From Thermoanaerobaculia bacterium (GTDB taxonomy: Bacteria > Acidobacteriota > Thermoanaerobaculia > Multivoradales > UBA5704): 64,000 nt of DNA. The translations under genes and the position numbers were made by a program. A model generated the notes under the pieces. The model did not search any database. It was not told the origin of the DNA and saw only the letters and a list, made by a program, of their open reading frames with translations. The DNA lies in contig DASYJD010000043.1 of NCBI GenBank assembly GCA_035996875.1, positions 6,724 through 70,723 on the forward strand, read 5' to 3'. Positions 20,594 through 36,768 of this stretch are shown here, piece by piece (positions within the stretch are counted from its first letter, which is position 1; every line of letters begins with the position of its first letter).

Positions 20594-20611
20594 AGCGCCC
20601 CCACCCAAGCC

Positions 20612-20772: not shown

Positions 20773-20804
20773 CGGAAGAAGAGGGCCGGGGTAATGAGGG
20801 TTCT
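20773..20804. repeat. Inverted partial copy of the same repeat unit (forms a long hairpin with 20612..20645)
   Basis: cggaagaagagggccggggtaatgagggttct is the reverse complement of the unit's 5' half. Lies between convergent hypB and the GGDEF gene. Confidence 0.6.
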
Positions 20805-21804
20805 ACACGGCCTGCACCGCCACTCTGTTGCGCCCGCTGCGCTTGGAGAGCAGCAGGGCATCGTCGGCGGCTTGGTAGAGGTCGTGGGGGGCGGTCATTG
20901 CCTTGCGCAGCTCGGCGACTCCGAAGGAGCAGCTCACGGCGATCTTGATGTCGCCATAGCGATGGTCGAAGTTGGCGACCTTGTCGCGCAGCTTGCTGGC
21001 CATGACCTCGGCACCCTCGGCCGTGGTCTCGGGAGCGAGGATGACGAACTCGTCGCCTCCGACCCGGGCGAGCATCTGCTCGGGGCGCACCAGCTCGCGG
21101 GCGATCGAGGCGACCTGCTTGAGAATGAAGTCGCCGCAGAGGTGGCCGTAGGTGTCGTTGATCGTCTTGAACTCGTCGAGGTCGAAGATGATGAGCGACA
21201 ACGGCCGCTGGTGGCGCTGGGCACGGGGAAGCTCGCGCTGCAGCTCCTCGTCGAACTTGCGCTTGTTGAAGATCTCGGTGAGGCCGTCCTTGGCCACCAA
21301 CTCGTAGATGGCGAGGTGATAGGCACTCTCGACGTCGGCCTCGTGCAGGAACTTGAAGTGGACGGCTGCGGTCTGGAAGCGGTCGCCGCTCCTCAGCACC
21401 GTGCGGCCGTGGACGGGCTGGCCGTTGACGTAGGTGCCGTTGGTGCTGCCCAGATCCTCGACGGTGACCACCGGCCCCATGTAGCGCAGGCGTGCGTGCT
21501 TGCGAGAGATCGACATCACCTCCGGCAGGCTGATGCCCACCGCGGCCGAACGGCCGATCTCCAGCGTGGTGCCCGGAGAGAGGCGGAAGCGGGAGCCCAG
21601 CCGCTGGCTCTCGGGATGGGCGATAAGGATGACGTCGGCCTCCGACTCCACGTGCATCGGGCCGCTGCCGCCGCTGCCCCGGCTGCTGCCCTCGAAGGTC
21701 TGCGTCGCGCCGCTCTCGTGGAGCGGTGAAAGGTCGATGTCGTCGGTGTCGGAGTCCCCTCGGGAGAGGACGTTGCGGGAGTCCGAGCGGTGGCGTTCGT
21801 CCAT
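20803..21804 (-). CDS. FHA-domain diguanylate cyclase (GGDEF)
   Basis: FHA region (LEIGRSAAVGISLPEVMSISRKHARL) plus GGDEF (RVGGDEFVIL). Start probably MDERHRSD at 21804 rather than the track start 21852. Confidence 0.75.
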   Translation of the reverse strand: MDERHRSDSRNVLSRGDSDTDDIDLSPLHESGATQTFEGSSRGSGGSGPMHVESEADVILIAHPESQRLGSRFRLSPGTTLEIGRSAAVGISLPEVMSISRKHARLRYMGPVVTVEDLGSTNGTYVNGQPVHGRTVLRSGDRFQTAAVHFKFLHEADVESAYHLAIYELVAKDGLTEIFNKRKFDEELQRELPRAQRHQRPLSLIIFDLDEFKTINDTYGHLCGDFILKQVASIARELVRPEQMLARVGGDEFVILAPETTAEGAEVMASKLRDKVANFDHRYGDIKIAVSCSFGVAELRKAMTAPHDLYQAADDALLLSKRSGRNRVAVQAV

Positions 21805-21900
21805 GGTCGAAGAGGTCCGCGGCTGCCGGGAAACAGGATAAAAGCCTAGCACCCCCCTCTGGAGGCGTCAAACCGGGAGTTTCCGGGCAAGATCATGCTC

Positions 21901-23208
21901 TCACTGGAGTTGCTTGAAGATCTCGCCGCCTTTCATCACGAAATCGATGTGTTCGAGAGTCCGCACGTCGGCGAGCGGGTTGCCGGGAGCAGCGACGACG
22001 TCGGCCAGCAGACCCGGATCGAGAGCGCCCCGGTCGTCGACGCCCAGCAGATCCGCGGCGGCCAGCGTGGCGGCGCGAATCGCGGCGAGCGGCGACATTC
22101 CCGCCGCGACCAGCAGCGCGAATTGCCTGGCGTTCTGGCCATGAGGAGCGGTGCCGGCGTCGGTGCCGTAGGCGATCTTGACGCCGGCGCGGACGGCCAG
22201 TCGTAGGCTCGCCGCCGCCCGCCGCTTGACTTCCACCATCTTGGCGCGCATGGCGTCCGGGTAGTCCGCATAAGCGTCGCCTTCGACTAAAATGGAAGTG
22301 GGTACGAGATAGGTGCCGCGCTCCTTCATCAGGCGGACCGCTTCCTCGTCGAGCTGCGAGCCGTGCTCGATCGAGGCCACTCCGGCGCGCACCGCGTGCA
22401 GAGTGCTGGCCAGGGAGTGGGAATGGGCCATCACCTTCAGATGGCTCCGCCTCGCCTCGTCGACGACCGTCTTCATCTCCTCGTCGGAGAACTGCAGGAT
22501 GTCGAGCGGCCGGTCGATGTCGCCGATGCCTCCCGACACCATGAGCTTGATGACCTCCGCTCCGTGCTTGATTTGATATCGCACGGCGCGGAGCAGTTTC
22601 TCAGGGCCGTCGGCGACGCCCTGCTCGGGGGTGGTCTCGAAGACGCCGGGAGGCCAGCCGGTGTTGTCACCGTGGCCGCCCGTCATGCTGATCTGGTAGC
22701 CGGCCGGCACGATGCGAGGTCCCACGGCAATCCCCTTTTCAATCGCCTTCTTCAGCCCGACGTCGATATAGTCGTTGTCGCCTGCCGAACGCACGGAAGT
22801 GAACCCGGCCAGCAGGGTGATGCGCGCGTTCTCGGCGCCGTTCAACGTGGCGTCGACCGGTCCGTCGAACAGACTCTCCGTGAACTTGTGGTGATGCGGG
22901 CCGCCGATGGACAGGTGCACATGCATGTCGAAAAGCCCGGGCAGCAGCGTGCGATCCCCGAGCTCGATCCAATGCGCACCCGCCGGTACGGCGACCGCCG
23001 AGCGCGTCCCCACGGCGCGGATGTGGCCGTCGGCGACGAGCACCACGGCATCTTCGAGCATTCGGCCGCTCCGCACGTCGAGCAGGCGTTGCGCGTGGAG
23101 GACGGTGTCCTCCGCCCAGGCCGGTCCGACAGCCATGATTGCGATCGTCGCGAGCCGAACCAGCGGCGCCAATCTGAGGTAACGCCAAAATGCAAACCTT
23201 GAGGTCAT
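21901..23208 (-). CDS. Secreted metal-dependent amidohydrolase
   Basis: Signal peptide MTSRFAFWRYLRLAPLVRLATIAIMAVGPAWA. LLPGLFDMHVHLSIGG metal-binding motif. ATG at 23208. Confidence 0.8.
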   Translation of the reverse strand: MTSRFAFWRYLRLAPLVRLATIAIMAVGPAWAEDTVLHAQRLLDVRSGRMLEDAVVLVADGHIRAVGTRSAVAVPAGAHWIELGDRTLLPGLFDMHVHLSIGGPHHHKFTESLFDGPVDATLNGAENARITLLAGFTSVRSAGDNDYIDVGLKKAIEKGIAVGPRIVPAGYQISMTGGHGDNTGWPPGVFETTPEQGVADGPEKLLRAVRYQIKHGAEVIKLMVSGGIGDIDRPLDILQFSDEEMKTVVDEARRSHLKVMAHSHSLASTLHAVRAGVASIEHGSQLDEEAVRLMKERGTYLVPTSILVEGDAYADYPDAMRAKMVEVKRRAAASLRLAVRAGVKIAYGTDAGTAPHGQNARQFALLVAAGMSPLAAIRAATLAAADLLGVDDRGALDPGLLADVVAAPGNPLADVRTLEHIDFVMKGGEIFKQLQ

Positions 23209-23209
23209 A

Positions 23210-23614
23210 TTACTCCCAATGCTTTGCAACCCGCGCCTGGCGCCGACCGCCAGCGACGGGATATTTGACCGCGTGCTCCGCGATGCGAGCCTTGACCAGC
23301 TTTCGCACCAGAGGAGCCGGCAACGGATGGTCCGCCGGAAAGCGAAGCGTGCCCTTGCTGGTGTCATAGCCCGCGAGCTCGTCCTTGAGGGCTTCCAGAG
23401 GATAGGCGCCGGGATAGAAGGCGCAGTGGTTCTTGGCGTCGCCGAAGGACACCAGCAGCCTGCCGTTCAGACGAAAGCCGGGGATCGCATAGCTGATGCA
23501 CTCCTCAGCCTCCGGCGCCGCGGCCTTGATGTCCCGCCGGAGCTTCGCGAGCGCCGCCCGGTGCTCGTCGCTCAAAGAAGCAAGATATTCGTCGATCGTC
23601 TTTGCCTTCGCTGC
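23210..23614 (-). CDS. DUF1801 (YdhG-like) domain protein
   Basis: AAKAKTIDEYLASLSDEHRAALAKLR...ISYAIPGFRLNG. Probable TTG start near 23614 after a GGAGAG SD. The track's N-terminal extension runs through a REP element. Confidence 0.55.
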   Translation of the reverse strand, partial: AAKAKTIDEYLASLSDEHRAALAKLRRDIKAAAPEAEECISYAIPGFRLNGRLLVSFGDAKNHCAFYPGAYPLEALKDELAGYDTSKGTLRFPADHPLPAPLVRKLVKARIAEHAVKYPVAGGRRQARVAKHWE

Positions 23615-23652
23615 CAAGGCTACTCTCCAATCACAAGGACCTACCCAAGGTA

Positions 23653-23686
23653 GAGACGCCCCGCGGGGAACCCCGTGGGGCGTCTC
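23653..23686. repeat. REP-like palindromic hairpin, copy 3
   Basis: gagacgccccgcggggaaccccgtggggcgtctc. Confidence 0.75.
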
Positions 23687-23750
23687 CGTCGCGGCGACAC
23701 CGCCCCAAAATCCCAAATCTCCCGCGGCCAACAGGAATCTTACTCTCCCT

Positions 23751-23785
23751 TTCTTCCCGTCTTCCCGTCTTCCCGTCTTCCCGAG
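23751..23785. repeat. 9-bp tandem repeat (cccgtcttc) x ~4
   Basis: ttcttcccgtcttcccgtcttcccgtcttcccgag, between REP copy 3 and the toxin-antitoxin operon. Confidence 0.6.
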
Positions 23786-23911
23786 AAACCCTACAACCAT
23801 CGCCGAACCCGCCCGCAGTACTGTTGATACTCGTCCCCAAACACCTGAAGCAGGCGCCGCTCCTACACCGGAATCACGAGACGAGGTACTGCCCCGAGGT
23901 TGACCAAACCA

Positions 23912-23937
23912 CATAGAGACTGTATAAAGTCTCTATG
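23912..23937. promoter_or_regulatory. Perfect palindrome catagagact-gtataa-agtctctatg overlapping the antitoxin start codon (candidate autoregulatory operator)
   Basis: 10-bp arms. The ATG of the antitoxin gene is the last 3 nt of the palindrome. Confidence 0.5.
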
Positions 23938-24228
23938 AAGACTCTCACTATCACCGAGGCCAAGAAGAACCTGGGCCGCTGGCTGGCGGCGGCGGCCGGC
24001 GGCGATGACGTAGGCATCATCTTGGGGGCCGATATCATCGCCCTTCGCAAAGTGGAAGTGGAATCCATAGACTATGCGCAGAGTGAGTACGGTGCGACTC
24101 CAGAGCAGGTGGCCGCCTTACAGAAAACCGTGGACGACCGCTATCGCCAGCTCAGGCCTTCAGGGAAGCTTTTGACGGTCACAGCGGCCGAGCTGAGAGG
24201 ACTTCTTGAAGAAGCTTCTCTCCCTTGA
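23935..24228 (+). CDS. Type II antitoxin, Phd/YefM family
   Basis: MKTLTITEAKKNLGRWL..., typical Phd/YefM N-terminus. 97 aa. Overlaps the downstream gene. Confidence 0.65.
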   Translation: MKTLTITEAKKNLGRWLAAAAGGDDVGIILGADIIALRKVEVESIDYAQSEYGATPEQVAALQKTVDDRYRQLRPSGKLLTVTAAELRGLLEEASLP

Positions 24229-24496
24229 TCCCGAGGTCTTGAAACGGCTGAAGAAGCTCAAAAAAAAAGAGCGAGTGGAATGTTTGCTGGCCCTTGTTGA
24301 GATGGCGGACACGTTTGGCCAGCCTCATAGCCACAGCGGGATTGGTATCCGCAAGCTCGGCGACCGTCTTTTCGAGTGTCGAGGCAACTTAGCCTTGCGT
24401 TTCGTGTTTGAGAACCGAGCCGAGGATCTCTTCGTCTTCTTCCTGGGTAAACACACAGAAGTCCAGAAACTTCTTCGCACTGGCAGCTTGGGCTGA
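24206..24496 (+). CDS. Putative RelE/ParE-superfamily toxin
   Basis: TTG start overlapping the antitoxin 3' end by 23 nt. ...LALRFVFENRAEDLFVFFLGKHTEVQKL. Contains an A9 homopolymer at 24260..24268. Confidence 0.45.
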   Translation: MKKLLSLDPEVLKRLKKLKKKERVECLLALVEMADTFGQPHSHSGIGIRKLGDRLFECRGNLALRFVFENRAEDLFVFFLGKHTEVQKLLRTGSLG

Positions 24497-24579
24497 GGTC
24501 GCGGAGGGCTATTGCCTGGGCGGAGCCTTATCCAAGGCCCGCTGCGGACAGTGCCCGGCTCCTCCCGGCGCGATCCCTC

Positions 24580-25293
24580 TCACCCCACCCGGAACACCTT
24601 CATCACCTCGTCCCCCAGGTGATTGATGACCTTCACCGCGATGCGTCCCGACTTGGGCTTGTCGAACGGGCGTGAGGTGTCGCTGTGGAGGGTGGCCCAC
24701 GCTTCTTCGTTGATCTCCGCCTTGAGGGTGGTCTTGAGCGCCTTGTAGGGATCGTTGGCGCCCAGGAAGTAGGCGTGGCGGACGAAGAAGCTCTCTTCGT
24801 TGTAGTCGGTGTCGATGAACCAGCAGGCGATGCCCTCGGCGCCGTCGCTGCGGACCTCTCCGGTGTTCGGGTGGAAAACGTCGACACCGTTGATCTTGAC
24901 CTGAACCTGACCATCCTCGGCGGGGAGGATGTCGATATCAGGCTCACCGAAGATCACGAAGAGGTTGCCCTTGCCGGTGTTCTTCAAGTCGCCAGCCATA
25001 TGAAGGTCGGCGTTCATGCGCGCCTTGAGCACCGGGATGCGGCCGAGCTTGTTGAATTCGGAGGCGTGAGCCTCGTAGTTGAACGCACAGGCGATCAACA
25101 CGTCGAAGTCGGCGTCGCCAGCCTCGCGCGCAGCAGTGACGAGGTCGGGACGCGTGACGGTGCCGAACTCCGGACCGATGAAAATCGCGGCGCGCCTCTC
25201 TTTTCCCCCTTCGCCTCCTTCGAGATAACGCCCCTCGGCGCAAACATGGTTTCCGGGCCAGGGGTTAAGCGCGGAGAACAGAATCTTATCCAC
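24580..25293 (-). CDS. Detached C-terminal domain of the Type III Mod methyltransferase, the displaced 3' portion of mod
   Basis: GTG start at 25293, then DKILFS encoded by the 18-bp inverted repeat, then a ~230-aa methyltransferase C-terminal-type domain (...GRIAVKVINHLGDEVMKV). In frame with the mod 3' end if the 25291..27617 segment is inverted. Confidence 0.55.
   Translation of the reverse strand: MDKILFSALNPWPGNHVCAEGRYLEGGEGGKERRAAIFIGPEFGTVTRPDLVTAAREAGDADFDVLIACAFNYEAHASEFNKLGRIPVLKARMNADLHMAGDLKNTGKGNLFVIFGEPDIDILPAEDGQVQVKINGVDVFHPNTGEVRSDGAEGIACWFIDTDYNEESFFVRHAYFLGANDPYKALKTTLKAEINEEAWATLHSDTSRPFDKPKSGRIAVKVINHLGDEVMKVFRVG
25273..25290. repeat. Left 18-bp inverted repeat (ggagaacagaatcttatc) of the invertible R-M segment
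   Basis: Perfect reverse complement of 27618..27635. Confidence 0.85.
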
Positions 25294-25521
25294 CTTGTGG
25301 TTGAGGTCAAAGGGTACCGTCGGGAGGATGCGAAAGAAAAGAAAGCAGTTATGGATTCGTATTGGATACCGGGAGTCAACAACCTCCGCACCTACGGCCG
25401 ATGGGCTTTCGCCGAGCTAACCGAGGTCTACCAAATCGAGAGCGACCTTGCGTCCAGGATCGAGTCTTTTTTCAACCAAATGATCGACCAAACGGTTGAG
25501 TCCGCCATGTATATCGTCTAA
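25291..25521 (+). pseudogene. Displaced 3' end of res: last 76 codons including the EVK of the PD-(D/E)xK nuclease motif
   Basis: Reads HLVVEVKGYRREDAKEKKAVMDSYWIPGVNNLRTYGRWAFAELTE...MYIV*. This continues the Res frame ...PDFVLLLDYGEQNLI across the inverted repeat when the segment is flipped. Stop lies 14 nt before the mod ATG. Confidence 0.7.
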
Positions 25522-25535
25522 AGAATGGATCAGCG

Positions 25536-27683
25536 ATGGCCGGGAAGAAAAGCAATCAAACGCCGAAGCAGATCGAAACGCTTATTCATGAGGAAGCGTC
25601 GCGCAAGAACATTCCCACGGCCGAGCTTCAGTCGGTCATGGCGAAGAACACCCAAAGCCCAATTCAGGTTGCCTACGAGCGCCGGAACCGCGATCTAGAT
25701 CCGCAACTTGTCTGGCGCGGCAAGGACGAGAAGGACTGGTCGGATCTGGTGGTGACGGCGCCCCCACTGTTCATTCAGGAGAAGGTGCATCCTAAAGCAT
25801 TGATCGACGATCTGGTCCAACGAAGCTCGCGCTCGAAGGAACAGGCGTCGGGAGTTCAGATCGATCTGTTCGCGGACTTCAACGGCGTTCCTGAGGGGGA
25901 CGCCAAGACCGAGTTTTACCAGCACGAAGCGAACTGGACGAACCGCATGATCCTGGGCGATAGCCTGCAAGTGATGGCCTCGCTCGCCGAGCGCGAAGGA
26001 CTGCGCGGCAATGTCCAGTGTATCTACTTCGATCCGCCCTATGGCATCAAGTTCAACTCCAACTTCCAGTGGTCGACCACCAGCCGAGACGTCAAAGACG
26101 GCAATACGGATCACATCACCCGTGAGCCCGAGCAGGTGAGAGCATTCCGTGACACATGGCGTGATGGGATTCACAGCTACCTGACGTATCTACGCGATCG
26201 GCTAACGATAGCGCGAGATCTGCTGAGAGAGAGTGGATCGATCTTCGTGCAGATCGGCGATGAGAACGTTCACCTCGTTAGGGCAGTGATGGATGAGGTG
26301 TTCGGCGAACCAAACTTCATATCTCAGGTTGTCTTCAAGAAAACATCATCAACTTCTTCCGAGGATCTTTCAAGCGTTTTTGACTACCTGCTTTGGTATA
26401 GGAAATCCGCGGTCTGCAAATACCGCCCGCTGTTTCAGTTCAAGAATCCTGGCGATGAAGGCGCTACTCAGTATTCCTTGGGGGAAAGCAAGCTTGGGGA
26501 GCGTCGCACACTAGCCGATTGGAAGGAAGAAAATGTTATCGCGGGTTCACTAAGGGTTTTCGCGCACGACAACATCACTAGTCAACGCCCAGCTCAGGGA
26601 GAAGACGTTCGGGCACTTGAGTATGAGGGGCGCTATTTTTCAATCAAAAAGGGTACCTTTAAGACTGATGCGATAGGGTTGCGGCGGTTATCCCAAACGA
26701 AGCGAATGATCTTCGTAGGTGGCACACTGCGTTACGTGCGCTACCTGGATGACTTCAAGGTTTTTCCTTACTCGAATCTATGGACCGATACCACGACTTC
26801 CGGCTTTGCCGACCCGAAGGTCTACGTCGTACAGACGAATCGGTCTGTAATCGAGCGTTGCCTTCTAATGGCCACCGATCCTGGGGATCTCGTTCTCGAT
26901 CCAACCTGCGGCTCGGGCACCACAGCCTATGTCGCGGAGCAGTGGGGGCGCCGGTGGATTACAATCGATACCTCGCGCGTGGCCTTGGCGCTGGCTCGCG
27001 CTCGGATCATGGGGGCCCGCTATCCCTTCTATCATCTCGCGGACAGCCGCGAGGGCCAGCTCAAAGAGGCCGAAGTCCGTCGCACCGGGCCGAGCCAAGC
27101 CTCGACACACGGCGACCTGCGCCAGGGTTTCGTCTACGAGCGTGTGCCTCACATCACACTCAAGTCGATCGCCAACAACACTGAGATCGATGTCATCTGG
27201 GAGAGGTTCCAGCAGGCGCTAGAGCCCCTGCGTGGACAGCTCAACAGAGTTCTCGGCGAGACTTGGGAGGAATGGGAGATTCCTCGAGCTTCCGAGCCGA
27301 AATGGTCAGCGGACGTAAGGGACCTGCACGGCCGGTGGTGGAAGGAGAGGATCGCCCGGCAGAAGGAGATCGATGCCTCCATCGCCGCCAAGGCCGAGTA
27401 CGAGTATCTCTATGACAAGCCTTACTCGGACGACAGGAGAGTCCGCGTTGCAGGCCCATTTACGGTCGAGAGCATCTCGCCGCACCGTACTCTGGGAGTC
27501 GACGAGAACGACGACTTGATAGACTCCCTAGAGAGCGCCCAATGCGAGAGGCCGGACTTCGCCACCATGATCCTGGAAAACCTGAAGACCGCCGGGGTGC
27601 AACAATCGCGGCTAGACGATAAGATTCTGTTCTCCGTAGTCCAAAAGCAAAACAAAGTCCGGCAAGTACGTGCGGGCTTCTGA
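25536..27683 (+). CDS. mod: Type III R-M methyltransferase Mod (beta-class N6-adenine), present form with a nonsense 16-aa tail
   Basis: YFDPPYG (motif IV) then DPTCGSGTT (motif I); N-terminal LVWRGKDE. Ends ...SRLDDKILFSVVQKQNKVRQVRAGF*, after DKILFS (the 18-bp repeat) instead of continuing into the C-terminal domain encoded at 24580..25272. Confidence 0.85.
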   Translation: MAGKKSNQTPKQIETLIHEEASRKNIPTAELQSVMAKNTQSPIQVAYERRNRDLDPQLVWRGKDEKDWSDLVVTAPPLFIQEKVHPKALIDDLVQRSSRSKEQASGVQIDLFADFNGVPEGDAKTEFYQHEANWTNRMILGDSLQVMASLAEREGLRGNVQCIYFDPPYGIKFNSNFQWSTTSRDVKDGNTDHITREPEQVRAFRDTWRDGIHSYLTYLRDRLTIARDLLRESGSIFVQIGDENVHLVRAVMDEVFGEPNFISQVVFKKTSSTSSEDLSSVFDYLLWYRKSAVCKYRPLFQFKNPGDEGATQYSLGESKLGERRTLADWKEENVIAGSLRVFAHDNITSQRPAQGEDVRALEYEGRYFSIKKGTFKTDAIGLRRLSQTKRMIFVGGTLRYVRYLDDFKVFPYSNLWTDTTTSGFADPKVYVVQTNRSVIERCLLMATDPGDLVLDPTCGSGTTAYVAEQWGRRWITIDTSRVALALARARIMGARYPFYHLADSREGQLKEAEVRRTGPSQASTHGDLRQGFVYERVPHITLKSIANNTEIDVIWERFQQALEPLRGQLNRVLGETWEEWEIPRASEPKWSADVRDLHGRWWKERIARQKEIDASIAAKAEYEYLYDKPYSDDRRVRVAGPFTVESISPHRTLGVDENDDLIDSLESAQCERPDFATMILENLKTAGVQQSRLDDKILFSVVQKQNKVRQVRAGF

Positions 27684-30440
27684 GCCGTAGCGATAGGGCA
27701 CCTCGAGACCGAGGTTGTAATTTTTCACGTAGGCCCGTACTCGCGGATGCGACTCGGCCACGCGGCAGAGCTCAGCCTCCCAGTCGCTGTCGCAGACAAT
27801 CCAGTTGATATGGCAGCGGCGTGGATCGGTCTGCCACCGAGTCTCCTTCGAGGTGGTGAAGTGGACGTGCCGGGTCGAGCCCGTGGGGTTGTACGGATCG
27901 AGCATCGCCTTGACCGGCCGTTCCCCCACCAGGCTCGCGACGATGCCGTGGGTGATTCGCTCGCAGGCCATATCCGCCAGCTCCTCGTACAGGAGCTGCG
28001 CGGGGTACGTACCTCCGGTGCAAACCAGATGATGGTCGAGCCATTCGCCGGTGATTCGCTTGAGCTGGCCGAACAGATGGAGCTTGGGTTCCTCGCCGGG
28101 ATCGCGCCACTTGGTGTAGAGCAGACGCCGGGTGAGGTGGTAGAGCAACGTCGAGCGGCGAAGCTCGCCGGTGTGCACCAGGTTCAGATCGACCGCCTCA
28201 CCGAGAATGCCCTGGTTCCGGGTCACCGAGGGACCCACGAGATCCGGGGTCAGCTCAAGGGTCGAGTCGTCGTCGAAGCGGGCAGAGAGTTTCTCCTCGG
28301 GCAGCTCGACGCGGTAGCCCTCGACCCGTGGAAAACGGATCTCGCAGGCATCGCGCTCGGGACGAATCGCCTGGACCAGGACTGTCTCGCGAGGCGGCTG
28401 CGGCGGCGCCACCACCGGCTTCGCGTTGAAGTCAAAGGGGATGCCGAGCACGTCCGCATACTCGACGTTGAACAACCCCTCGTCGTTCAGATCGTACGAC
28501 TGGCGCCGGAGCGCCCGGCCGATCACCTGCTCGCAGAGGAGCTGAGTGCCGAAGGCGCGCACGCCGAGCACGTGGGTGACCGTGTTGGCGTCCCACCCCT
28601 CAGTCAGCATCGAGACGGAGACGACACAGCGGATGGAGCCACCGAGGCGTCCCTGCTTGCCGACTGTGTTCATCACCTCACGCAGGAGGTCTTCGTCCGA
28701 AAGGTTCTCTGCTTGCCGCTGGTCACCTGTGCGTTCACGGATCTCACGCCGGAAGCGATCGATCTCGTCCGCGGCCATCTTGCGGAAGTTGTCGTCGAGC
28801 CCTTCGCCGGCTTCGAGCTGCTCGCTGTCGATCAGCAGCGTGCGCGGCCGGCCGAGCCTGGCGCCCGACTCATCGAAGTTCCGGAAGAGAGGCAGCCGGC
28901 CATTCTCGATGGTTTTCGTGCCGTCATCGTTGGCGCGTTCGAAACCGGAGACGTAGTCATAGACCAGCTTCGAGGTCGAGGTGTTGTTGCACACCACGAT
29001 GAAGCAGGGAGGCACACTGACTCCGGCCTGCTCCCAAAGCTCGAAGGTCTTGGCATAGTGGCCGTAGAGGGCATCGAGCGCCGTCTGGAGCTTCGTCGGC
29101 AGCTTGAGGGGATCCAATCCGCCCGCCTTCGCGCGTCCCCTCTTCGGCATCTCGGCGCGAATGTGATCCCAGAGGTTGCGGAAGACGGGCATCTCTTCCC
29201 CCGGGATGTTGTCCGCGACCGGCACCCGGGGGAGCTTCACGATGCCGCTTTCGATGGCGTCCATCAGGGAGAAGTCGCTCATGGTCCAGGGGAAGAGGGT
29301 GCCCTCGGCGTAGCCCGAGCCGCGGAGGAAGAACGGCGTCGCCGATAGATCGATCACTCGCAGCAGGCCGAGCTTGCGCTGGACTCTCTCCAGTCCGGAG
29401 ATCCAGAGCCGTGCAGCCTCCTGGTTGCGTTCGGCTTCCTGCCGGTCCTCTCCCTTCAGCTCGTCCTCGTCGGGCTCGCCAGGTTTTTGGCGGTAGCAGT
29501 GATGGGCCTCGTCGTTGAGCACGAGGACGTTCTTCATTCCCATCAGGTCGGGCATCACGCGCTGAAGCATCTGGCCTTCGGTTTCGAGGGTCGAAAGCTC
29601 CGGCCCACGACCTTGGAGCAGCGCCCGGTTCCCTTTCGACAGCTCAAGCACCTCGCGCAGCTTGAAGGCGTGATAGTTGGTGATGACGATTTTCGCCCTC
29701 CCGAGATCCCCCAGGAGATCGGGCGGCACCAGCTCTCGGCTCTGGTAGTAGCTGTCCGGGTCGTTCGGCTGTAGCACCCGCAGACGGTCCCGGATCGTCA
29801 GGCCGGGGGTGACGACGAGGAAGCCTCGGGTGAACCGGCGGCTGTTCGGCCGGCGCACCGCATTGATCGTCTGCCAGGCGATGAGCATCGCCATGACGGT
29901 CGTCTTGCCGGTTCCGGTCGCGAGCTTGAGCGCCAGGCGGGCCAGCCCTGGGTTCGCCTCCTCGTTCGCCGCCGAGAGGTGATCGAGAAACTTCTGGCCC
30001 GCGGCGCCCAGTTTCGGCGCCACCTCGACGAGCCAGATGATTGTCTCAACCGCTTCGACCTGGCAGAAGAATGGCCGCAAAGCGCTGAACTTGTGGTGCC
30101 GCCAGTGTGCAAGGAGCCGTGCCGTCTCGGGAGTCACCGCCCAGTCGTTGGCGTTCGGCAGCTCCCGCCAGGCGTCGACCGTTTGACGCAGGGCGTTGAT
30201 GACGGGCGTTGGGTCGTACTTCTGGCGCTCGGTCGACAGACCCATAGCATCCTGGAGAAGGAGCTCCCTCTGCCCTATCCGTTGCTTCTTTGCCTGCGGA
30301 ATCGGCGACACGTACTGCGCCGACCGCCGCCGCTCGATCACCCGGTTCGTCGGCTGTCCGCTCTCGTCGAGCTCCCAGTACTGCGCAGGATAGTCGTATG
30401 GCGAGTTGAGGATGGGACGGTCAAAAAACGACAGGGACAT
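27612..30440 (-). CDS. res: Type III R-M restriction subunit Res (SF2 helicase/ATPase), truncated in the PD-(D/E)xK motif in the present orientation
   Basis: Reverse complement from 30440 reads MSLSFFDRPILNSPYDYP... Walker A TGTGKTT, DEAH box VLNDEAHH. C-terminus ...PDFVLLLDYGEQNLIV* lacks the EVK. The track labels this ORF '+', but the + strand at 27612 is in the Mod frame. The gene is on the minus strand. Confidence 0.85.
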   Translation of the reverse strand: MSLSFFDRPILNSPYDYPAQYWELDESGQPTNRVIERRRSAQYVSPIPQAKKQRIGQRELLLQDAMGLSTERQKYDPTPVINALRQTVDAWRELPNANDWAVTPETARLLAHWRHHKFSALRPFFCQVEAVETIIWLVEVAPKLGAAGQKFLDHLSAANEEANPGLARLALKLATGTGKTTVMAMLIAWQTINAVRRPNSRRFTRGFLVVTPGLTIRDRLRVLQPNDPDSYYQSRELVPPDLLGDLGRAKIVITNYHAFKLREVLELSKGNRALLQGRGPELSTLETEGQMLQRVMPDLMGMKNVLVLNDEAHHCYRQKPGEPDEDELKGEDRQEAERNQEAARLWISGLERVQRKLGLLRVIDLSATPFFLRGSGYAEGTLFPWTMSDFSLMDAIESGIVKLPRVPVADNIPGEEMPVFRNLWDHIRAEMPKRGRAKAGGLDPLKLPTKLQTALDALYGHYAKTFELWEQAGVSVPPCFIVVCNNTSTSKLVYDYVSGFERANDDGTKTIENGRLPLFRNFDESGARLGRPRTLLIDSEQLEAGEGLDDNFRKMAADEIDRFRREIRERTGDQRQAENLSDEDLLREVMNTVGKQGRLGGSIRCVVSVSMLTEGWDANTVTHVLGVRAFGTQLLCEQVIGRALRRQSYDLNDEGLFNVEYADVLGIPFDFNAKPVVAPPQPPRETVLVQAIRPERDACEIRFPRVEGYRVELPEEKLSARFDDDSTLELTPDLVGPSVTRNQGILGEAVDLNLVHTGELRRSTLLYHLTRRLLYTKWRDPGEEPKLHLFGQLKRITGEWLDHHLVCTGGTYPAQLLYEELADMACERITHGIVASLVGERPVKAMLDPYNPTGSTRHVHFTTSKETRWQTDPRRCHINWIVCDSDWEAELCRVAESHPRVRAYVKNYNLGLEVPYRYGSEARTYLPDFVLLLDYGEQNLIV
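27618..27635. repeat. Right 18-bp inverted repeat (gataagattctgttctcc)
   Basis: Encodes DKILFS in Mod (+) and GEQNLI in Res (-). Confidence 0.85.
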
Positions 30441-30785
30441 TTAGCAGAGGATATCTCACTGCGGCGAATGAATCCCATCCTGGCCCGCGTCACCCTTGGC
30501 AGGGTTGGGGATGGTGGGGTTCGCAGGGGTCCCAGGGTTGCACCCTGGGCTAGAGGAATGCCGCCCTCCGGGCTCTCGGCGTCGTCCATTGAGCTTTCAA
30601 GAGCCGCTCAACGCTCCTCGGGTACCTGACCGAAGACCTTGGCACCTCTCGCCACAACACGCAGGCTGACTACAACCGTACTGGAAAGCAGCTTGGCGCT
30701 GGACGGACTGCAAAATACCCCACGCCTACGGCCAAGCCGGCTGCCGAGCGCGGCCGAGGCCTACCACTCCTCCCGGACCCGTGAC

Positions 30786-30930
30786 CGGCCCCTTCAGGCC
30801 ACGGGTCCCCGCGGGTCTGCCGATCGTCTCAGCACCTTCTGCGAGCGAGCGGACCCAGGGCCGGAGGGGCGGTTGGACTCCCGGCCCCCCGGCGGATTTC
30901 AGTTGTCAAAGAACCTGCTTCACCCCGATC
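30786..30930. repeat. Left arm of a long (~140-bp, ~85% identity) inverted repeat
   Basis: Includes ggccggaggggcggttggactcccggccccccggcgg and the flanking ...gttgtcaaaga motif. Reverse complement matches 31640..31790. Confidence 0.7.
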
Positions 30931-31224
30931 GATGAGACCTCCTCGCCGGGCACTGCCTCCAGGAGGCAGGATCATACACCAAGAGAATCTGAAAACGTCA
31001 ATGCCAGTGAGCGAGATTTTTGAAAATTTCTAGGCTATCGTCAACCTTCTCAGAGAAGGGCAGACGTTTTCCACCGCTTCAAGACGCGATCCGTCACCTT
31101 GGCAGGAGGCGACCGTCGCCATTCGGCGCCCGGCCGGAACCGGTGGAGCGACCGCCCGCCCCTAGGGGCTGACCTGCTCCGGCCTCCTGAGAGGCAGCGG
31201 CCAGAAGATCGAGCCGGTCCGCCG

Positions 31225-31505
31225 CTGTTGAAAGTCGACTAGCCGCCGGCGGCCGACGCCGCGCCGGCAGCGGCGAGCCTCCGGCCGGTAGCCGAAATCC
31301 TCTCGCCGGTAGCGGCAAGTCGTCGGCCGGCAGCGGCCAGTCGTTGGCCGGTAGCGGCGGATCGTTCGCCGCCAGCGGCCAGTCGTCGGCCGGCAACGGT
31401 TAGTCGTTCGCCGCCAGCAGCCAGCCGTCTACCGGTAGCGGCGAGCCTCCGGCCGGCAGCGGCGAGTCGTCGGCCGGTGCCGGCTAACCGTCCGCCGGTA
31501 GCGGT
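31225..31505. repeat. Second degenerate 21-bp tandem array (~13 units; ggccggcagcggccagtcgtt family)
   Basis: Heptad LPADDWP-like on the minus strand but interrupted by stops, so probably non-coding. Lies inside the long inverted-repeat element. Confidence 0.7.
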
Positions 31506-31639
31506 CAGATGCCGCGAAGCCTACAAATTTCGTCTCGCATTGGCCACAGAAACCGTCTGTTAGGTTTTGTTCCAAAATCTAACAGGGTACTTGACTTCTT
31601 CAGGTGCCATGGATGTATGATCCAGCTCCCCTTCGGCGG

Positions 31640-31790
31640 GAAGGTCCCGCCGGCCGGGGTAGGTAGGCTCTTTGACAACTTGAACCGCCGGGGGGCCGGG
31701 AGCCCAACCGCCCCTCCGGCCCTTAGATCCGCTCGAACGCAGAGGGTGCGGAGACGATCGAGCGGATCTCAACGACCCGTGGCCTTAAGG
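31640..31790. repeat. Right arm of the long inverted repeat
   Basis: Reverse complement aligns with 30786..30930. Confidence 0.7.
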
Positions 31791-32019
31791 CGGGCAGGCC
31801 ACGGGTTTGTTTGTGTTTGGGGAGACAGGAGGGGGTGGAGAGGCGGCCAGGAAGGCGGCTTCGACGGAGGGTCCCCGAATCTCCCCGGCGGGGGTTGTCG
31901 TTTGATTGGGGCGGGATTGCCGCCTCGGAGACGTCCCGCCATTCCCGGGCCTGCGGAGGGGTGGCGTGGTCGGGCTGGGAGCGTCTCTACCCCTCCGGCC
32001 AGCTCTTTTGACGAGCTCC

Positions 32020-32350
32020 TACTTCCCCGCCAGGAACGCCTTTAGGACATGCCGGGCGACTTCGGGGTTCTCGCGCAGCCTCCGCATGGAGTATGGATAC
32101 CAGTCCCGGCCATAGGGGACGTAGACGCGCAAGCGGTGGCCGGCGGCGAGGAGGATGCGGCGCAGCTCGTCGTCCACCCGAGCAGCATCTGGAACTCGTA
32201 GCGGTCGCGGGGCACACTGTGCTTATCGAGGAGGGCCGTGGCCTCGCAAGCCAGATACTCGTCGTGGGTGGCGATGCCCACATAGACGCCGCGCAGAATG
32301 AGCTTCTCCAGGGCGCTGACGTAGTTGGCCCGCACGGTGTCATACCCCTT
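32020..32350 (-). pseudogene. Duplicated 3' fragment of proline dehydrogenase, frameshifted
   Basis: ~95% identical to 34445..34775. Encodes ...YDTVRANYVSALEKLILRGVYVGIATHDEYLACEATALLDKHSVPRDRYEFQMLLG, then a 1-bp deletion (cgtcgtccacccgag versus cgtcgtccaccccgag). Confidence 0.75.
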
Positions 32351-32433
32351 CCACCTTCGCGGATCGCCACCGGCCCAGCGCCGGTCAGGGCGTTCAACAG
32401 TTCCCACCGCTTGCCGGTGAGCGTCCCTGGAAA

Positions 32434-33918
32434 CTACTGCACCTGGAAGTTGACCGTTAGTACGTAGTAGACCTTGACAGGTTTACCCTCGAGCGTGGCC
32501 GGCCTGAACTTCCACTCTTGGACCGCCTCCACTGCAGAACCGTCGAGGCCCATAGGCAAGCCCTTGAGCACGCGAACGTTGGTGACATTGCCACCGGTGT
32601 CGATGATGGCTTCGACGATTACCGTACCAGTGACGCGTGCGCGACGGGCGAGTTCGGTGTAGACCGGCTCGACCTTATTGATGATCTCCGGCCGAGTTAC
32701 GCCGCCGCTAACGCGCAAGGGAGCATCTTCAACCACGCCGCCGCCACCGCCCGTCATCCCGGTGTCAACAGCGGTCGGCTCGCTGATGCGGTCGGCCGAG
32801 CCCCCTGCCTTGTGCATCGCCGGCAAATCCGTTGCCTTTTTTCCCAATGGCTGCTTTGGCGATTTCTGCTTAAAAGATGGCTGCTCAGGTGATGGCTGCT
32901 CAGCTAATGGCGAGGCCCGTTTTGAACCTACTTCCAGATTGATCAATAGCGGGACGGCGATCATAGCCACCAAGGCTAAGATGACACCCCACCAACGCAA
33001 GCTTGCCCTTGGAGAGGCTGTAGGTGCGCCAAGGGTAAAGCTCGGAGGCGACGCTGTGGGCCAGGGAGGCGCGACTGAAGACCTAGGCGGGACGGAGGTC
33101 GGCCCGCTCGGAGCTGCTGGTAAAGGATTGGGACCCCACCGCGAAGCAGGGGCCTCGCGGGCCCTCTGGGGTTCTGGCTCCGCTTTCTTTTGAACCCTCG
33201 CGGCCTGGGCCGCTTCTCGCTCCGCCGCCACAGCCTTCGCCTTGGCGGCCACTTGCGTTGCCAGTTCCGCTGCCTCCGCTGCCGCAGCCCATCTGGCTCG
33301 CTCTTCTGCCGCGATTCTCTCTTTGACCGTCCTTTCCGCCGCCAGCTTGGAGGCCGCCTCTCGAGCTGCGGCCAGTTCCAGTTGGTGGGCGCGCCATCGG
33401 AGCAAGGCGGTTAGCTCCCATCGAGCGGCGCGCAGTTCCTCTTTTTCTCTGAGCGTCGTCTTGAGCACGTTCTCCAAGTCGCTCAGCAGGCGAGACAGGT
33501 GGGAGTCGAAGTCCTGGAAGGGATCGAGGGTGGCTCCGTCGCGCCAGCCGAGATCCTTCAATTCCTCGGGCAGTTGTTGCGGCCGAGGCATCTCGACGCC
33601 TGCCAAGCAGACCGGCACCACTGGCAGCCAGCTCCGCTTAAGACTCTCCGCGACCTCGTAGCGAACCCAGTCCCGAGGATCCTCCAGCCGCTCGGTCAGG
33701 AGCTGTAACCACGCCGGACCGATGATGACCAGCACGATGTCGGTTACGCGTAAAGCCCGATCGACTTTCACAGGGAAGGACAGTCCCGGGCTTCGAGAGT
33801 CGACGTCCAGGAAGGTGCTCTCTTCGCCATAGCGCCTGCGGAGCTCTCGGAAGATCATGTGCGCCAAGTATTTACCTTCCTGGTCGCTCCTCCTGTACGA
33901 GATGAAGAAGTGTGGCAT
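32434..33918 (-). CDS. TIR-domain protein with coiled-coil, Pro-rich segment, one TM helix and periplasmic TonB C-terminal domain (novel architecture)
   Basis: N-terminal MPHFFISYRRSD...RDWVRYEVAESLKR (TIR_2-like with a candidate catalytic Glu). Ala/Glu-rich coiled coil. TM helix WWGVILALVAMIAVPLLINL. C-terminal ...RPEIINKVEPVYTELARRARVTGTVIVEAIIDTGGNVTNVRVLKG...VQEWKFRPA (TonB_C). Confidence 0.75.
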   Translation of the reverse strand: MPHFFISYRRSDQEGKYLAHMIFRELRRRYGEESTFLDVDSRSPGLSFPVKVDRALRVTDIVLVIIGPAWLQLLTERLEDPRDWVRYEVAESLKRSWLPVVPVCLAGVEMPRPQQLPEELKDLGWRDGATLDPFQDFDSHLSRLLSDLENVLKTTLREKEELRAARWELTALLRWRAHQLELAAAREAASKLAAERTVKERIAAEERARWAAAAEAAELATQVAAKAKAVAAEREAAQAARVQKKAEPEPQRAREAPASRWGPNPLPAAPSGPTSVPPRSSVAPPWPTASPPSFTLGAPTASPRASLRWWGVILALVAMIAVPLLINLEVGSKRASPLAEQPSPEQPSFKQKSPKQPLGKKATDLPAMHKAGGSADRISEPTAVDTGMTGGGGGVVEDAPLRVSGGVTRPEIINKVEPVYTELARRARVTGTVIVEAIIDTGGNVTNVRVLKGLPMGLDGSAVEAVQEWKFRPATLEGKPVKVYYVLTVNFQVQ

Positions 33919-34089
33919 CTCGGTTCAGACGCTCTCTAGCGCTCCTCTAGGGACATTCCATGGAGCGCATGGACAGGCAATAACAATCCGACGCGCAAGT
34001 ATTTACGACGAGGACGATCAGAAGGCTAACGCTGGACGGTTAACGCTGTCAAACAGACGCGCCCGCGACAACCTGCATCTGCGACGTAG

Positions 34090-34434
34090 TCAGGCGTTTG
34101 CCAGCGCAACCACCAAGCGTTTGCCCACGGCGTCGGCGTAGCGCACGAGGGTCTCGATGGTAGGGTTGAGGCGTTGCCCGGTTTCAAGTTTCGAGAGAGC
34201 CGACCGATCCATGCCAGTCAGTCGAGTCAAATCCGAAAGGCTCAATCCTTTTTCTTCGCGGGCGGACTTCAGTTGGTGGACCAGGTCTGTCAACTGGTCG
34301 AGGGCTGCCATGCGCTCCTCATGCCGCGCGATCAACTCGGGCAGCTCTTCTGTAACCTGTTTCCGGATCTCGCGATTTTCCGCGGCTTCTTCAGGAGAGA
34401 GGCGGCTATCACGGGTGATACGCCGAAGGCTCAT
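34090..34434 (-). CDS. XRE-family HTH protein (HigA-like; C-terminal helix-turn-helix)
   Basis: LSLSDLTRLTGMDRSALSKLETGQRLNPTIETLVRYADAVG. 114 aa. Immediately upstream of the TIR gene and downstream of putA-like PRODH. Confidence 0.7.
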   Translation of the reverse strand: MSLRRITRDSRLSPEEAAENREIRKQVTEELPELIARHEERMAALDQLTDLVHQLKSAREEKGLSLSDLTRLTGMDRSALSKLETGQRLNPTIETLVRYADAVGKRLVVALANA

Positions 34435-34444
34435 CGCCGGCTCC

Positions 34445-35344
34445 CTACTTCCCCGCCAGGAACGCCTTCAGCACATGCCGGGCGACTTCGGGGTTCTCGC
34501 GCAGCCTCCGCATGGAGTATGGATACCAATCCCTCCCATAGGGGACGTAGACGCGCAGGCGGTGGCCGGCGGCGAGGAGGATGCGGCGCAGCTCGTCGTC
34601 CACCCCGAGCAGCATCTGGAACTCGTAGCGGTCACGGGGCACACTGTGCTTGTCGAGGAGGGCCGTGGCCTCACAAGCCAGATATTCGTCGTGGGTCGCG
34701 ATGCCCACGTAGACGCCACGCAGGATGAGCTTCTCCAGGGCGCTGACGTAGTTGGCCCGCACGGTCTCGTAACCCTTCCAGGCCACCTTGCGCGACTCGA
34801 TGTAGATCCCCTTGCAGAGGCGCACGGAGGCGCCTTCGGCGGGCAGGTCGTCGATGTCCTTCAGGGTGCGGCGCATGTAGGCCTGGAGGACGCAGCCGAC
34901 GTTGCCGTGGCGGGCCTGGAGGTCGCGGTAGATGCGCAGCGTGGCATCCGTCGTCGATTGGTCCTCCATGTCGATACGCACGGAGTTGCCCTGCGCCTTC
35001 GCCGTCTCGGCGATGCGGCCGATGTTGTCGCGGCAGAAACCCTCGTCGATCTTCAGCCCCAGGAGGGTCGGCTTGATGGAGACGTTGGCGTTCAGCTTCT
35101 CCCGTTCGATCGCCGCGAAGGCCCGGAGGTTCTCCTCGGTGGCGGCGAGGGCTTTCTCGCGCTCGCTGACCTCCTCGCCGAGGACGTCGACGGTCGCCAT
35201 GGCGCCTTCCTGATTGAGGCCGCGGATGATGCGGACGGCATCTTCGAGAGTCTCGCCCGCGACGTAGCGGGAGGCCACCCGGCGGACGACGGGTTTGGGC
35301 ACCAGAGGCAGGGTGGTGACCAGCAAGCGGTTGAACACACTCAT
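34445..35344 (-). CDS. Proline dehydrogenase (monofunctional PRODH)
   Basis: 299 aa. ...VRLCKGIYIE...YETVRANYVSALEKL...RLRENPEVARHVLKAFLAGK. Confidence 0.85.
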   Translation of the reverse strand: MSVFNRLLVTTLPLVPKPVVRRVASRYVAGETLEDAVRIIRGLNQEGAMATVDVLGEEVSEREKALAATEENLRAFAAIEREKLNANVSIKPTLLGLKIDEGFCRDNIGRIAETAKAQGNSVRIDMEDQSTTDATLRIYRDLQARHGNVGCVLQAYMRRTLKDIDDLPAEGASVRLCKGIYIESRKVAWKGYETVRANYVSALEKLILRGVYVGIATHDEYLACEATALLDKHSVPRDRYEFQMLLGVDDELRRILLAAGHRLRVYVPYGRDWYPYSMRRLRENPEVARHVLKAFLAGK

Positions 35345-35394
35345 CTCGCCCCTCTCCTCGGGTGCTCTTTAAGCGGATCTCGGGATTGTTGAGC

Positions 35395-36768
35395 TCAAGC
35401 GACGGGCTGACTGACCGAAGGCTGCGGCGCGGCCTTCACGGCCACCGCGGTTCCCGAGCCGATCACTGCCGGTTCGTCGGTCATCCAGCGCACCGACTTG
35501 GAGCACGGGCAGGCCCCGGCGACGCGGCGCAGGGCCGGCATCCGCCCAGCCGCCTGCTCGGGCGTCATCCGCCCTGCCTGGACCTCGATCAACGACTCTA
35601 CCGTCTCTTTGTAGTCGCGGCTGGCGAGGTAGGACTCGGGCAGGGTGCGAACCAGGTGCTGAAGGTACGTGGGAACGCTGGTGAAGGTCTCGCCCTGGGA
35701 GCCCACCATGCGGAAAGCGGGAACGCCCCGGCGGCGGAAGAAGTCCATGTGCGGCATATGGAGAAGATCCTCGCGGCGGACTCCCTCGACGGTCTCGCCG
35801 GCCAGAATGCGGTCGAGCGCATCCTCGGAGCTTACGTGGGTGAGGTTCTCGATGCGGGCTCGCAGGTAGCGGAGGTTGAGGTCGCGCACCAGCTTCTCCA
35901 CTTCCTGGTAATACTGCGCCTGAGCCTCGGAGTTCTTCATGGGCTTGAGGCCCAAGCGGACGTTCGTGCCGCCGCCGCGCTCGTCGCCGAACATCTCGAG
36001 GCCGCGCGGCAACCACTTGTTGATCGCCTTCTGCAGCACGTCCACGGTGACGAAGGTCTCGCCTCGGGCGGCGGAGGTGACCCAGCGCCGCATGGGCACC
36101 ACGCCCGCGGCCAAGTGGAATGCCTCCTCACGCAGCATCTGGGGCATGCTCTCCGCCATCGGCTGGTAGGCCGAGATCTTCTGCATGGCGAGCTGGTACT
36201 TGCCGACGCGGTCGATCAGGGCGCAGAAGACGACGTTGTCGACGAAGGAATCGAAGTCGATGTTGAAGGCGCCCAGGAGGTGAGAGCCGGTTGTCATCGA
36301 CAGCACGTCTTCGATCAGGTCGGAGGCGGATTCCTTGGAGACCGAGCTCCAGTCGTCCTCGACCAGCAGGTGGAGCATCTGATAGCCGTGGCGCAACTCC
36401 TCGGCCATCATGCGGAGGATCCAGAACTGCTCCTCTTCCTCCTGGGCACGGGCGAGCGTGAGGCGGTGCTGCTGGATGGAGCCGAACTCGGTGGAGGCCT
36501 GGGCGCGGATGGCGCCGAAGAGGTGATGCGCCTGCTCCGGAAGCATCTCGCCGGCCTTCTGGAACTTCGGCTTGCCCTTCATGTCGCCGCACTCGATCTC
36601 GGTGCACATGCCCATCTCGCGGAAGGCGCAGAGCTGGAACTCGGGATCGTTGGGAAAGTGCTTGTCCCAGTTCTCCATCAGGAAGCCGTAGTCGGGAAGG
36701 AAAACTTCCTGCCACTTCAGGACCGCTTCGTGAAATTGCTTCGGCAGGGTTGTGCTCTTCACGCTCAT
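35395..36768 (-). CDS. Ferritin-like di-iron carboxylate oxygenase, BoxB-like (benzoyl-CoA oxygenase component B family), orphan
   Basis: ~458 aa with two ExxH motifs (AEELRHGYQM; REEAFHLAAG). ATG at 36768 (MSVKSTTLPKQ). Confidence 0.45.
   Translation of the reverse strand: MSVKSTTLPKQFHEAVLKWQEVFLPDYGFLMENWDKHFPNDPEFQLCAFREMGMCTEIECGDMKGKPKFQKAGEMLPEQAHHLFGAIRAQASTEFGSIQQHRLTLARAQEEEEQFWILRMMAEELRHGYQMLHLLVEDDWSSVSKESASDLIEDVLSMTTGSHLLGAFNIDFDSFVDNVVFCALIDRVGKYQLAMQKISAYQPMAESMPQMLREEAFHLAAGVVPMRRWVTSAARGETFVTVDVLQKAINKWLPRGLEMFGDERGGGTNVRLGLKPMKNSEAQAQYYQEVEKLVRDLNLRYLRARIENLTHVSSEDALDRILAGETVEGVRREDLLHMPHMDFFRRRGVPAFRMVGSQGETFTSVPTYLQHLVRTLPESYLASRDYKETVESLIEVQAGRMTPEQAAGRMPALRRVAGACPCSKSVRWMTDEPAVIGSGTAVAVKAAPQPSVSQPVA

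Follow-up and report, generated by a model that had tools for sequence, protein, structure and literature searches.

A probable scar of one-anchor recombination beside the proline dehydrogenase gene of an uncultured acidobacterium

When a gene set in a bacterial chromosome is bracketed by two copies of the end of a neighbouring housekeeping gene, do the repeats mark a mobile cassette, a local duplication, or a meeting of two lineages? We addressed this question for a stretch of 64,000 nucleotides (hereafter the window) from a Thermoanaerobaculia bacterium of the phylum Acidobacteriota, in which a gene for a TIR-TonB_C protein and a gene for an XRE-family regulator lie between direct repeats of the 3' end of a proline dehydrogenase (PRODH) gene. 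We report that the repeats most likely record a one-anchor recombination in which two closely related lineages of Thermoanaerobaculia took part, and that they lie in a hot spot for defence genes. Related loci are cited below by L numbers.

The intact PRODH gene (34445..35344, minus strand; 299 aa; Pfam Pro_dh, 5.4e-34) contains the right copy of the repeat (34444..34780, minus strand), which covers gene nt 565-900 plus 1 nt and whose homology extends, across a 5-nt gap, to ~34789 (gene nt 556). The left copy (32018..32354, minus strand) is a displaced, 5'-truncated PRODH allele comprising gene nt 556-900 with two deletions: 5 nt (CCTGG) are missing beside its 5' junction, and one G has gone from a G-run (gene nt 739, window ~32178), which shifts the reading frame. 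Gene nt 1-555 are absent from it. By repeat search and pairwise alignment the copies, ~337 nt long (window 32018-32354 and 34444-34780), are 94.7% identical and differ by 17 substitutions and a 1-nt deletion over 337 nt. The search output listed two adjoining families (32018-32179/34444-34605 and 32177-32353/34604-34780) with a one-base offset, as a single ~337-nt repeat with one indel would give. Both copies close with TAGG, the PRODH stop codon plus one base. A first-pass annotation of this DNA had described direct repeats of ~330 bp and ~95% identity, bounded by the PRODH stop codon in both copies and with a frameshifted PRODH 3' fragment on the left, and all of this is borne out.

The differences between the copies are not those of a decaying duplicate. 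Sixteen of the 17 substitutions are synonymous, the remaining one is a conservative E-to-D change, and 15 fall at codon position 3; with the expectation computed from the observed transition/transversion ratio, 30% would be synonymous by chance (P = 4e-8 against random placement). When the 17 sites were polarised with nine relatives, about six clearly derived changes could be assigned to each copy, interleaved along the repeat, and the 1-nt deletion was unique to the left copy among these relatives. The copies are closest to each other (94.9%), all other PRODH genes found being 86-93.5% identical to them; their identities to L172 (93.5% and 93.2%) do not distinguish the resident allele. Since a truncated, frameshifted fragment escapes purifying selection, these differences must have arisen while both sequences were working genes in separate lineages. 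The copies are thus two functional PRODH alleles of close lineages that were brought together, and the event is recent, as there has been almost no decay since.

The point at which the cassette meets the left copy can be read to the base. The last donor-type sequence before it is a 68-nt internal fragment (32355..32422, minus strand) of an HVO_A0114-like winged helix-turn-helix (wHTH) gene, 97% identical to L172 5927-5994 and 94% identical to L171 8140-8206, the latter lying within a 113-aa wHTH gene of the HVO_A0114 family (PF25212); the first ~126 nt of the wHTH gene are missing downstream of the TIR-TonB_C gene. The first-pass annotation had stated that the 2.1 kb between the copies hold only the TIR-TonB_C and XRE genes; both are there, together with this fragment. 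At the joint (32355..32365, minus strand), GATCCGCGAAG in the wHTH gene faces GAGTCGCGCAAG in PRODH, a microhomology of ~11 nt that is imperfect, with 9 of ~11 positions matching in a three-way alignment of the window, L172/L171 and PRODH. In L172/L171 the wHTH sequence is uninterrupted, GATCCGCGAAG being followed by CCGCCCGGCG (a continuation also given as CCGCCCGG); in PRODH, GAGTCGCGCAAG is followed by GTGGCCTGGAAGGG; and in the window GATCCGCGAAG passes directly into GTGG, the site of the 5 missing nt and then AAGGGGTATGAC. This joint is thus an illegitimate crossover that fused the middle of a wHTH gene to PRODH nt 556. Further joints of this kind within the cassette lie between the PRODH stop codon and the XRE gene, between TIR and TonB sequence near 33092, and between the TonB-derived 3' region and the wHTH fragment at 32422/32423. 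The cassette is a patchwork with at least four illegitimate joints and no discrete unit.

Alleles and joint together bear on the possibility of a tandem duplication in situ, in which sister chromosomes would have recombined at the microhomology so as to double the segment between PRODH nt 556 and the wHTH gene, with the second cassette diverging or being lost afterwards. Microhomology-mediated tandem duplication is the commonest type of spontaneous rearrangement, and the joint sequence is compatible with it. Yet the non-functional copy should then have changed at random, whereas all substitutions but one are synonymous and derived synonymous changes are found in both copies. An extra event would also be needed to remove the duplicated XRE and TIR genes and to replace everything past the second stop codon, and the allelic differences begin at nt 573, only 17 nt from the joint, which leaves scarcely any room for a later allelic replacement. 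We regard this history as very unlikely. The first-pass annotation had proposed a duplicative insertion or recombination at the PRODH end: entry by recombination fits our results, but a copying of resident sequence does not.

The surroundings of the cassette place it in a variable region. Upstream, the gene order LipA-EamA-GNAT-PaaA-PRODH is kept in all fetched loci. Downstream, an FHA-GGDEF gene lies -52 to +190 nt after PRODH in 47 related Thermoanaerobaculia loci (PRODH 69-81% aa identity), an arrangement that we take, from this comparison, to be the ancestral empty site. In the window this conserved border gene (20803..21852, minus strand; Pfam FHA and GGDEF) is separated from PRODH by an island of 12.6 kb (21874..34444), the homology of relatives resuming at 21873; the island contains the XRE and TIR-TonB_C genes, the PRODH fragment, repeat arrays, a type III-like restriction-modification (RM) system, small open reading frames (ORFs), a DUF1801 gene and an amidohydrolase gene. 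Expanded spacers are a feature of the close subclade with PRODH identities of at least 86% (aa) and measure 711 nt in L004, 725 nt in L085, 960 nt in L083, 4.8 kb in L006, 6.9 kb in L003, 8.1 kb in L002, more than 10 kb in L005 and 12.6 kb in the window (21874-34444). Their cargo varies: a BrnT-like ORF and an XRE gene in L004, Uma2 in L083, two TIR genes and a candidate HigB/HigA-like pair (recognised by eye from ORF translations) in L003, and a TIR gene with a wHTH gene in L171. L172 has the unduplicated arrangement, PRODH-BrnT-like-XRE-TIR-(wHTH piece)-Uma2-GGDEF. The search for an empty site in related genomes, suggested with the first-pass annotation, thus found PRODH directly before FHA-GGDEF in the 47 loci and differently filled sites elsewhere. 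The flank that follows the displaced PRODH stop codon (31807..32017, minus strand) is itself accessory DNA with a REP-like palindrome; its sole match is L002 8824-8969, just behind an XRE stub, and it is absent from near-empty relatives. Because the left copy sits inside the 12.6-kb island and its flank is accessory, the repeats do not delimit the inserted region.

Defence hot spots flanked by core genes are known from pangenome studies of E. coli and Pseudomonas. The present locus resembles them in offering a fixed intergenic position to varying defence-type cargo (TIR, toxin-antitoxin, Uma2, RM), but differs in that its occupants are not recognisable mobile elements and in that the cargo is apparently exchanged and rearranged by host recombination.

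Two kinds of repeated sequence also occur in this region. An element of ~210 nt is present twice in inverted orientation (30772-30979 and 31590-31806; ~80% identical, with a 39-nt core that is 97% complementary), and single copies lie just downstream of PRODH in L001 (3988-4193) and L084 (12368-12576). No further copies were found in the window or in the fetched loci L001-L162, and there was no Rfam match; the idea of a dispersed, high-copy miniature inverted-repeat transposable element was rejected, the element being confined to the hot spot (window, L001 and L084). The two inverted copies flank a 21-nt tandem array, and several genomes have arrays with a period of 21 nt (or 42 nt) close to a TIR gene or within the hot spot (window 31263-31504, L001 3454-3693, L166 9012-9242, L168 10506-11125), with repetitive ORFs at L002 ~12850-13640 and L003 ~16800-17600. 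The array units are mutually unrelated (GCCGGCAGCGGCGAGCCGTCG in the window, CCGATTTGCCACGTGGCAACC in L166, CGCCGCTAGGGATAATCGGCT in L001), and the arrays may be either genes for heptad-repeat proteins or non-coding.

Does the cassette carry the means of its own movement? Scans of all ORFs in the 2.1-kb cassette and the 12.6-kb island against Pfam, NCBIfam and PADLOC revealed no integrase, excisionase or transposase. A tRNA/tmRNA scan of the whole window gave none, and an Rfam search of 20000-36000 at a permissive threshold returned chance matches to miRNA models only. The cassette has no attC-like or att-like site and no IntI, and its ends are a stop-codon fusion and a truncated gene, which is not the form of an integron cassette. 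Nor is it bounded by terminal inverted repeats, and repeats that are allelic and 337 nt long do not correspond to a transposon or insertion sequence. The description of the cassette as mobile accessory DNA in the first-pass annotation therefore holds for 'accessory', given the empty and differently filled sites, but not for self-mobility.

The closest known design with an intact gene and a direct repeat of its 3' end at the far side is the island that an integrase inserts at a gene end (attL/attR). Such a site-specific integration at the PRODH 3' end, by an element that carried a replacement end and whose integrase is elsewhere or lost, would account for repeats that end exactly at the stop codon and for a gene that stays intact. 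L002 also recalls the tandem arrays of such islands, with three stacked PRODH ends: besides its intact gene it has two displaced ends, truncated at gene nt 792 and 833 and both ending at the stop codon, the first of which (nt 792) continues into an XRE stub and differs from the intact gene of L002 by five synonymous changes and one non-synonymous change. The repeat starts, however, share no fixed core site: the 5' truncations differ (nt 556 in the window, 792 and 833 in L002) and have no common core sequence, and this variation argues against a fixed att core. In addition, the cassette and island lack the enzymes, and the far joint lies mid-gene, in a truncated wHTH gene that continues in relatives and so cannot be the end of an element. 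The shared end at the stop codon is where the downstream sequences of the lineages diverge, which is a simple explanation of the boundary. The probability that we give to site-specific integration is accordingly very small.

A third alternative, an assembly chimera, is bounded by a Logan contig, L082 (SRR11678566, 2194 nt), which is 100% identical to window 34502->32309 and connects the single-nucleotide polymorphisms (SNPs) of the right copy, the cassette, the junction and the SNPs of the left copy; each of its ends lies 30 nt beyond the last copy-specific SNP, matching the expectation for a k=31 unitig, and the structure is thus not an artefact of a single assembler. That the metagenome assembly joined two co-existing strains within shared PRODH sequence is hardly credible, even for a soil metagenome contig whose copies resemble the alleles of two strains, because the joint of the wHTH fragment with PRODH nt 556 rests on no more than ~11 imperfectly shared bases, far fewer than any assembler k-mer, recurs in the independent unitig, and would itself be left standing by a strain switch inside the repeat downstream of it, which is formally possible.

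The copies are allelic, the joint has been read, recombinase machinery is lacking, the site is a hot spot and the pattern recurs elsewhere; all this is observed, and on these grounds we consider recombination at one anchor the probable origin of the repeats. The PRODH 3' ends of the two lineages would have been ~5% apart, with the intact PRODH gene as the homologous anchor. One lineage would have carried PRODH-XRE-TIR::TonB-wHTH and the other PRODH followed by a different accessory flank, and DNA would have passed between them. One end of the exchange would then have been resolved by homologous recombination and the other by the illegitimate joint, at ~11 nt of microhomology between the wHTH gene and PRODH nt 545-555, to give the intact PRODH gene, the cassette and the 5'-truncated PRODH end of the other lineage. 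This could have come about by homology-facilitated illegitimate recombination (HFIR) of a linear fragment that brought in the cassette and had its anchor in PRODH; by the mirror image of that event, in which the anchor of the linear fragment lay on the GGDEF side, the left copy and RM island arrived with it and the rest of the wHTH gene was deleted; or by a degraded fragment that was re-circularised and integrated by a single crossover, duplicating part of the anchor. As to route, direction and mode of DNA entry, the sequence alone would be compatible with all three versions; SNP states in the nine relatives are interleaved, and no crossover mosaic within the repeats separates a Campbell from an HFIR route.

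Laboratory work offers a direct comparison for these routes (de Vries & Wackernagel 2002; Prudhomme et al. 2002; Amarir-Bouhram et al. 2011, PMC3240628), with one homologous anchor, a microhomology joint and foreign genes placed beside a conserved gene. In HFIR the joints show microhomologies of 3-10 bp, and events usually combine an insertion with a deletion (PMC3240628). In an E. coli assay, 56 of 60 recombinants carried instead an anchor duplication of 109-950 bp, which arises from a single crossover of partly degraded, re-circularised molecules (PMC3240628), and such a duplication is exactly the architecture of the window. The window has the shared anchor and the illegitimate joint with short microhomology, but part of the anchor is duplicated where HFIR predicts an insertion together with a deletion in the recipient; this favours the single-crossover route, or a joint that fell by chance inside the anchor, and would also suit the mirrored direction if the 3' end of the wHTH gene and the genes beyond it were lost. 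It differs from the laboratory events in being a natural footprint in an uncultured acidobacterium, with an imperfect microhomology (9/~11) and routes that are indistinguishable by sequence.

Several points weigh against our interpretation. Classical HFIR usually yields an insertion and a deletion and not a duplication of the anchor (PMC3240628). Neither parental genome was found, so that donor, recipient and homologous crossover point could be assigned in more than one way. Uptake of DNA by the host, whether through competence or conjugation, would be a supposition for this uncultured lineage. Finally, all of the evidence comes from metagenome assemblies, and the two that agree on the structure, the window (JGI 3300041409 Ga0395523_00000138) and L082, may derive from one sample.

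The closest natural parallels are the displaced 3' ends of type VI secretion system (T6SS) effector genes in V. cholerae, for which HFIR has been proposed (Kirchberger et al. 2017, PMC5361080), and the displacement of Rhs C-termini (Jackson et al. 2009, as cited in PMC5361080). There, too, the arrival of a new module beside conserved 5' sequence drives the old 3' end further downstream, and repeated events stack orphan 3' fragments, as in L002. The anchor in those systems is part of a toxin gene and the retained cargo consists of immunity genes, whereas here it is the housekeeping gene PRODH, which is functionally unlinked to the cargo.

A comparable scar is found with another TIR gene. In L163 (Ga0307506_10000075, from another sample; 5918-9742) the TIR homologue P0010 has a complete TrxR-like gene on one side and a second copy of that gene, truncated at its 5' end, on the other; the direct repeats of 921 nt are 95.6% identical, and of their 38 substitutions 29 are synonymous and 9 non-synonymous, with 30 at codon position 3. 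This is the same type of scar at an unrelated locus. A TIR module in L166 has been joined to a copy of the TMEM43-like gene that lies next to it (84-88% identity). These loci hint that the TIR family often moves or diversifies by a one-anchor route; such cases number two or three among the ~13 loci surveyed, and a dedicated mechanism is not established.

What, then, was carried in? The XRE-family helix-turn-helix gene (34090..34434, minus strand; 114 aa; Pfam HTH_3, 5e-12) starts only 10 nt past the PRODH stop codon, and its co-transcription with PRODH is therefore probable. Its product is 97% identical (aa) to the XRE protein of L004, where the gene follows a BrnT-like ORF, and L172 has the same XRE gene upstream of its TIR gene. 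In relatives the XRE gene is paired with this ORF of 88-89 aa, which lies between PRODH and XRE (L004 10935-11204, L172 3071-3337), matches Pfam BrnT_toxin weakly (6e-4) and overlaps the XRE start in the style of a toxin-antitoxin operon. The ORF is deleted in the window (34435-34447), L001 and L002, where a TAGG microhomology marks the fusion of the PRODH stop codon with the ribosome-binding region of XRE, and the XRE protein may therefore be an orphaned regulator of the antitoxin type. A scan of 31700-35500 for promoters and terminators gave nothing beyond the shuffled expectation.

The second gene (32434..33918, minus strand; 494 aa; Pfam TIR_2 and TonB_C) encodes a TIR domain, then one membrane helix, predicted by inspection of the translated ORF, and after it a periplasmic TonB_C domain. 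In an alignment of the TIR domain with the TIR NADase of SARM1 (E ~1e-6), DWVRYEV stands opposite DWVHKEI and the Glu residues coincide; we take the SARM1 residue to be the catalytic E642, and the protein would thus be TIR NADase-like with its catalytic Glu. A TIR effector anchored through a TonB-like periplasmic domain, as predicted here, would be an unusual architecture. PADLOC gave no match for the TIR-TonB_C protein or for the TIR protein of L172, and the NCBIfam ThcB4 score was below threshold (18 bits, cutoff 220). Among Thoeris and other catalogued TIR systems no system-specific model matched, and the cassette holds no gene for a ThsA-like partner effector.

The TIR-TonB_C gene is a chimera of recent origin. 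Its DNA can be aligned with the TIR genes of L172, L171 and L003 only as far as about window 33092, where TonB-like sequence begins; the stretch from 32423 to 33092, the 3' two-fifths of the gene, encodes a Pro-rich linker, the membrane helix and TonB_C, and resembles ordinary TonB proteins. The full TIR plus TonB_C architecture is a singleton among 5.8 billion protein clusters, while its TIR half shares 60-88% identity with TIR proteins whose C-termini are different (multi-transmembrane in L003, TMEM43-like in L166) and its TonB_C domain is ~75-80% identical to those of ordinary Thermoanaerobaculia TonB proteins. No close match to the TonB-derived segment was found in the window or the fetched loci, the best being 76% over ~100 nt of an ordinary tonB gene in L003. 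Among the TIR loci DNA homology starts at the start codon, with no shared upstream cassette end.

Elsewhere in the island, the type III-like RM system (window 24580-30440) is split by an inversion, a more unusual item than the repeat scar itself. A perfect 19-nt inverted repeat has one arm at each breakpoint (25272-25290 and 27618-27636). The mod gene (25536..27683, plus strand) covers just positions 74-741 of the PADLOC model MTase_III PDLC03632, its C-terminus being a separate ORF (24580..25293, minus strand), and the res gene (27612..30440, minus strand) covers positions 1-918 of NF046055 (BPTD_3080 family), its C-terminus with the nuclease motif ...LVVEVKG being the ORF 25297..25521 (plus strand). 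Flipping 25291-27617 in silico restores both res and mod in frame. Two homologues, L175 intact and L176 inverted, have repeats of 22-27 nt at the same positions, and the arm sequences co-vary across loci (ACAGAATC, ACACAATC and ACACGATC), each mirrored in its own partner arm; the truncated P0133 and P0128, which is cut by a contig end, stop at the same breakpoint. In 17 more distant RM homologues (3 on plasmids, 14 on viral contigs) there were only inverted repeats of 9-11 nt at chance level. No invertase gene lies near the inversion, and we found no literature on this RM family. From these comparisons the segment has the look of a conserved switch, whose inversion would truncate res and mod at the same time.

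If the illegitimate joints and host-gene repeats of the TIR family are taken further, TIR genes might spread among related acidobacterial strains as cassettes that lack a recombinase and bring with them, as an integration handle, part of the host gene next to them, although we think this rather unlikely. Were it true, a looped-out circle of repeat and cassette would re-integrate by a single RecA crossover in any strain that has the host gene, the window would be one instance, with a PRODH handle, and L163 another, with a TrxR-like handle, and illegitimate joints would also generate new TIR fusions such as TIR::TonB_C and TIR::TMEM43.

In summary, the repeats around the TIR cassette are probably the product of a known process, and the mechanism is not new. 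They serve as a caution that not every repeat-flanked gene set is a mobile cassette, and they suggest a general test, since differences confined to synonymous sites in flanking repeats separate joined alleles from a local duplication. For the organism, repeats of 337 nt predict RecA-mediated loss or circular excision of the cassette, so that the TIR cassette would be unstable. The locus would be a base-resolved natural example of how a defence gene is added beside a housekeeping gene without the machinery of mobile elements, in a poorly known soil phylum.

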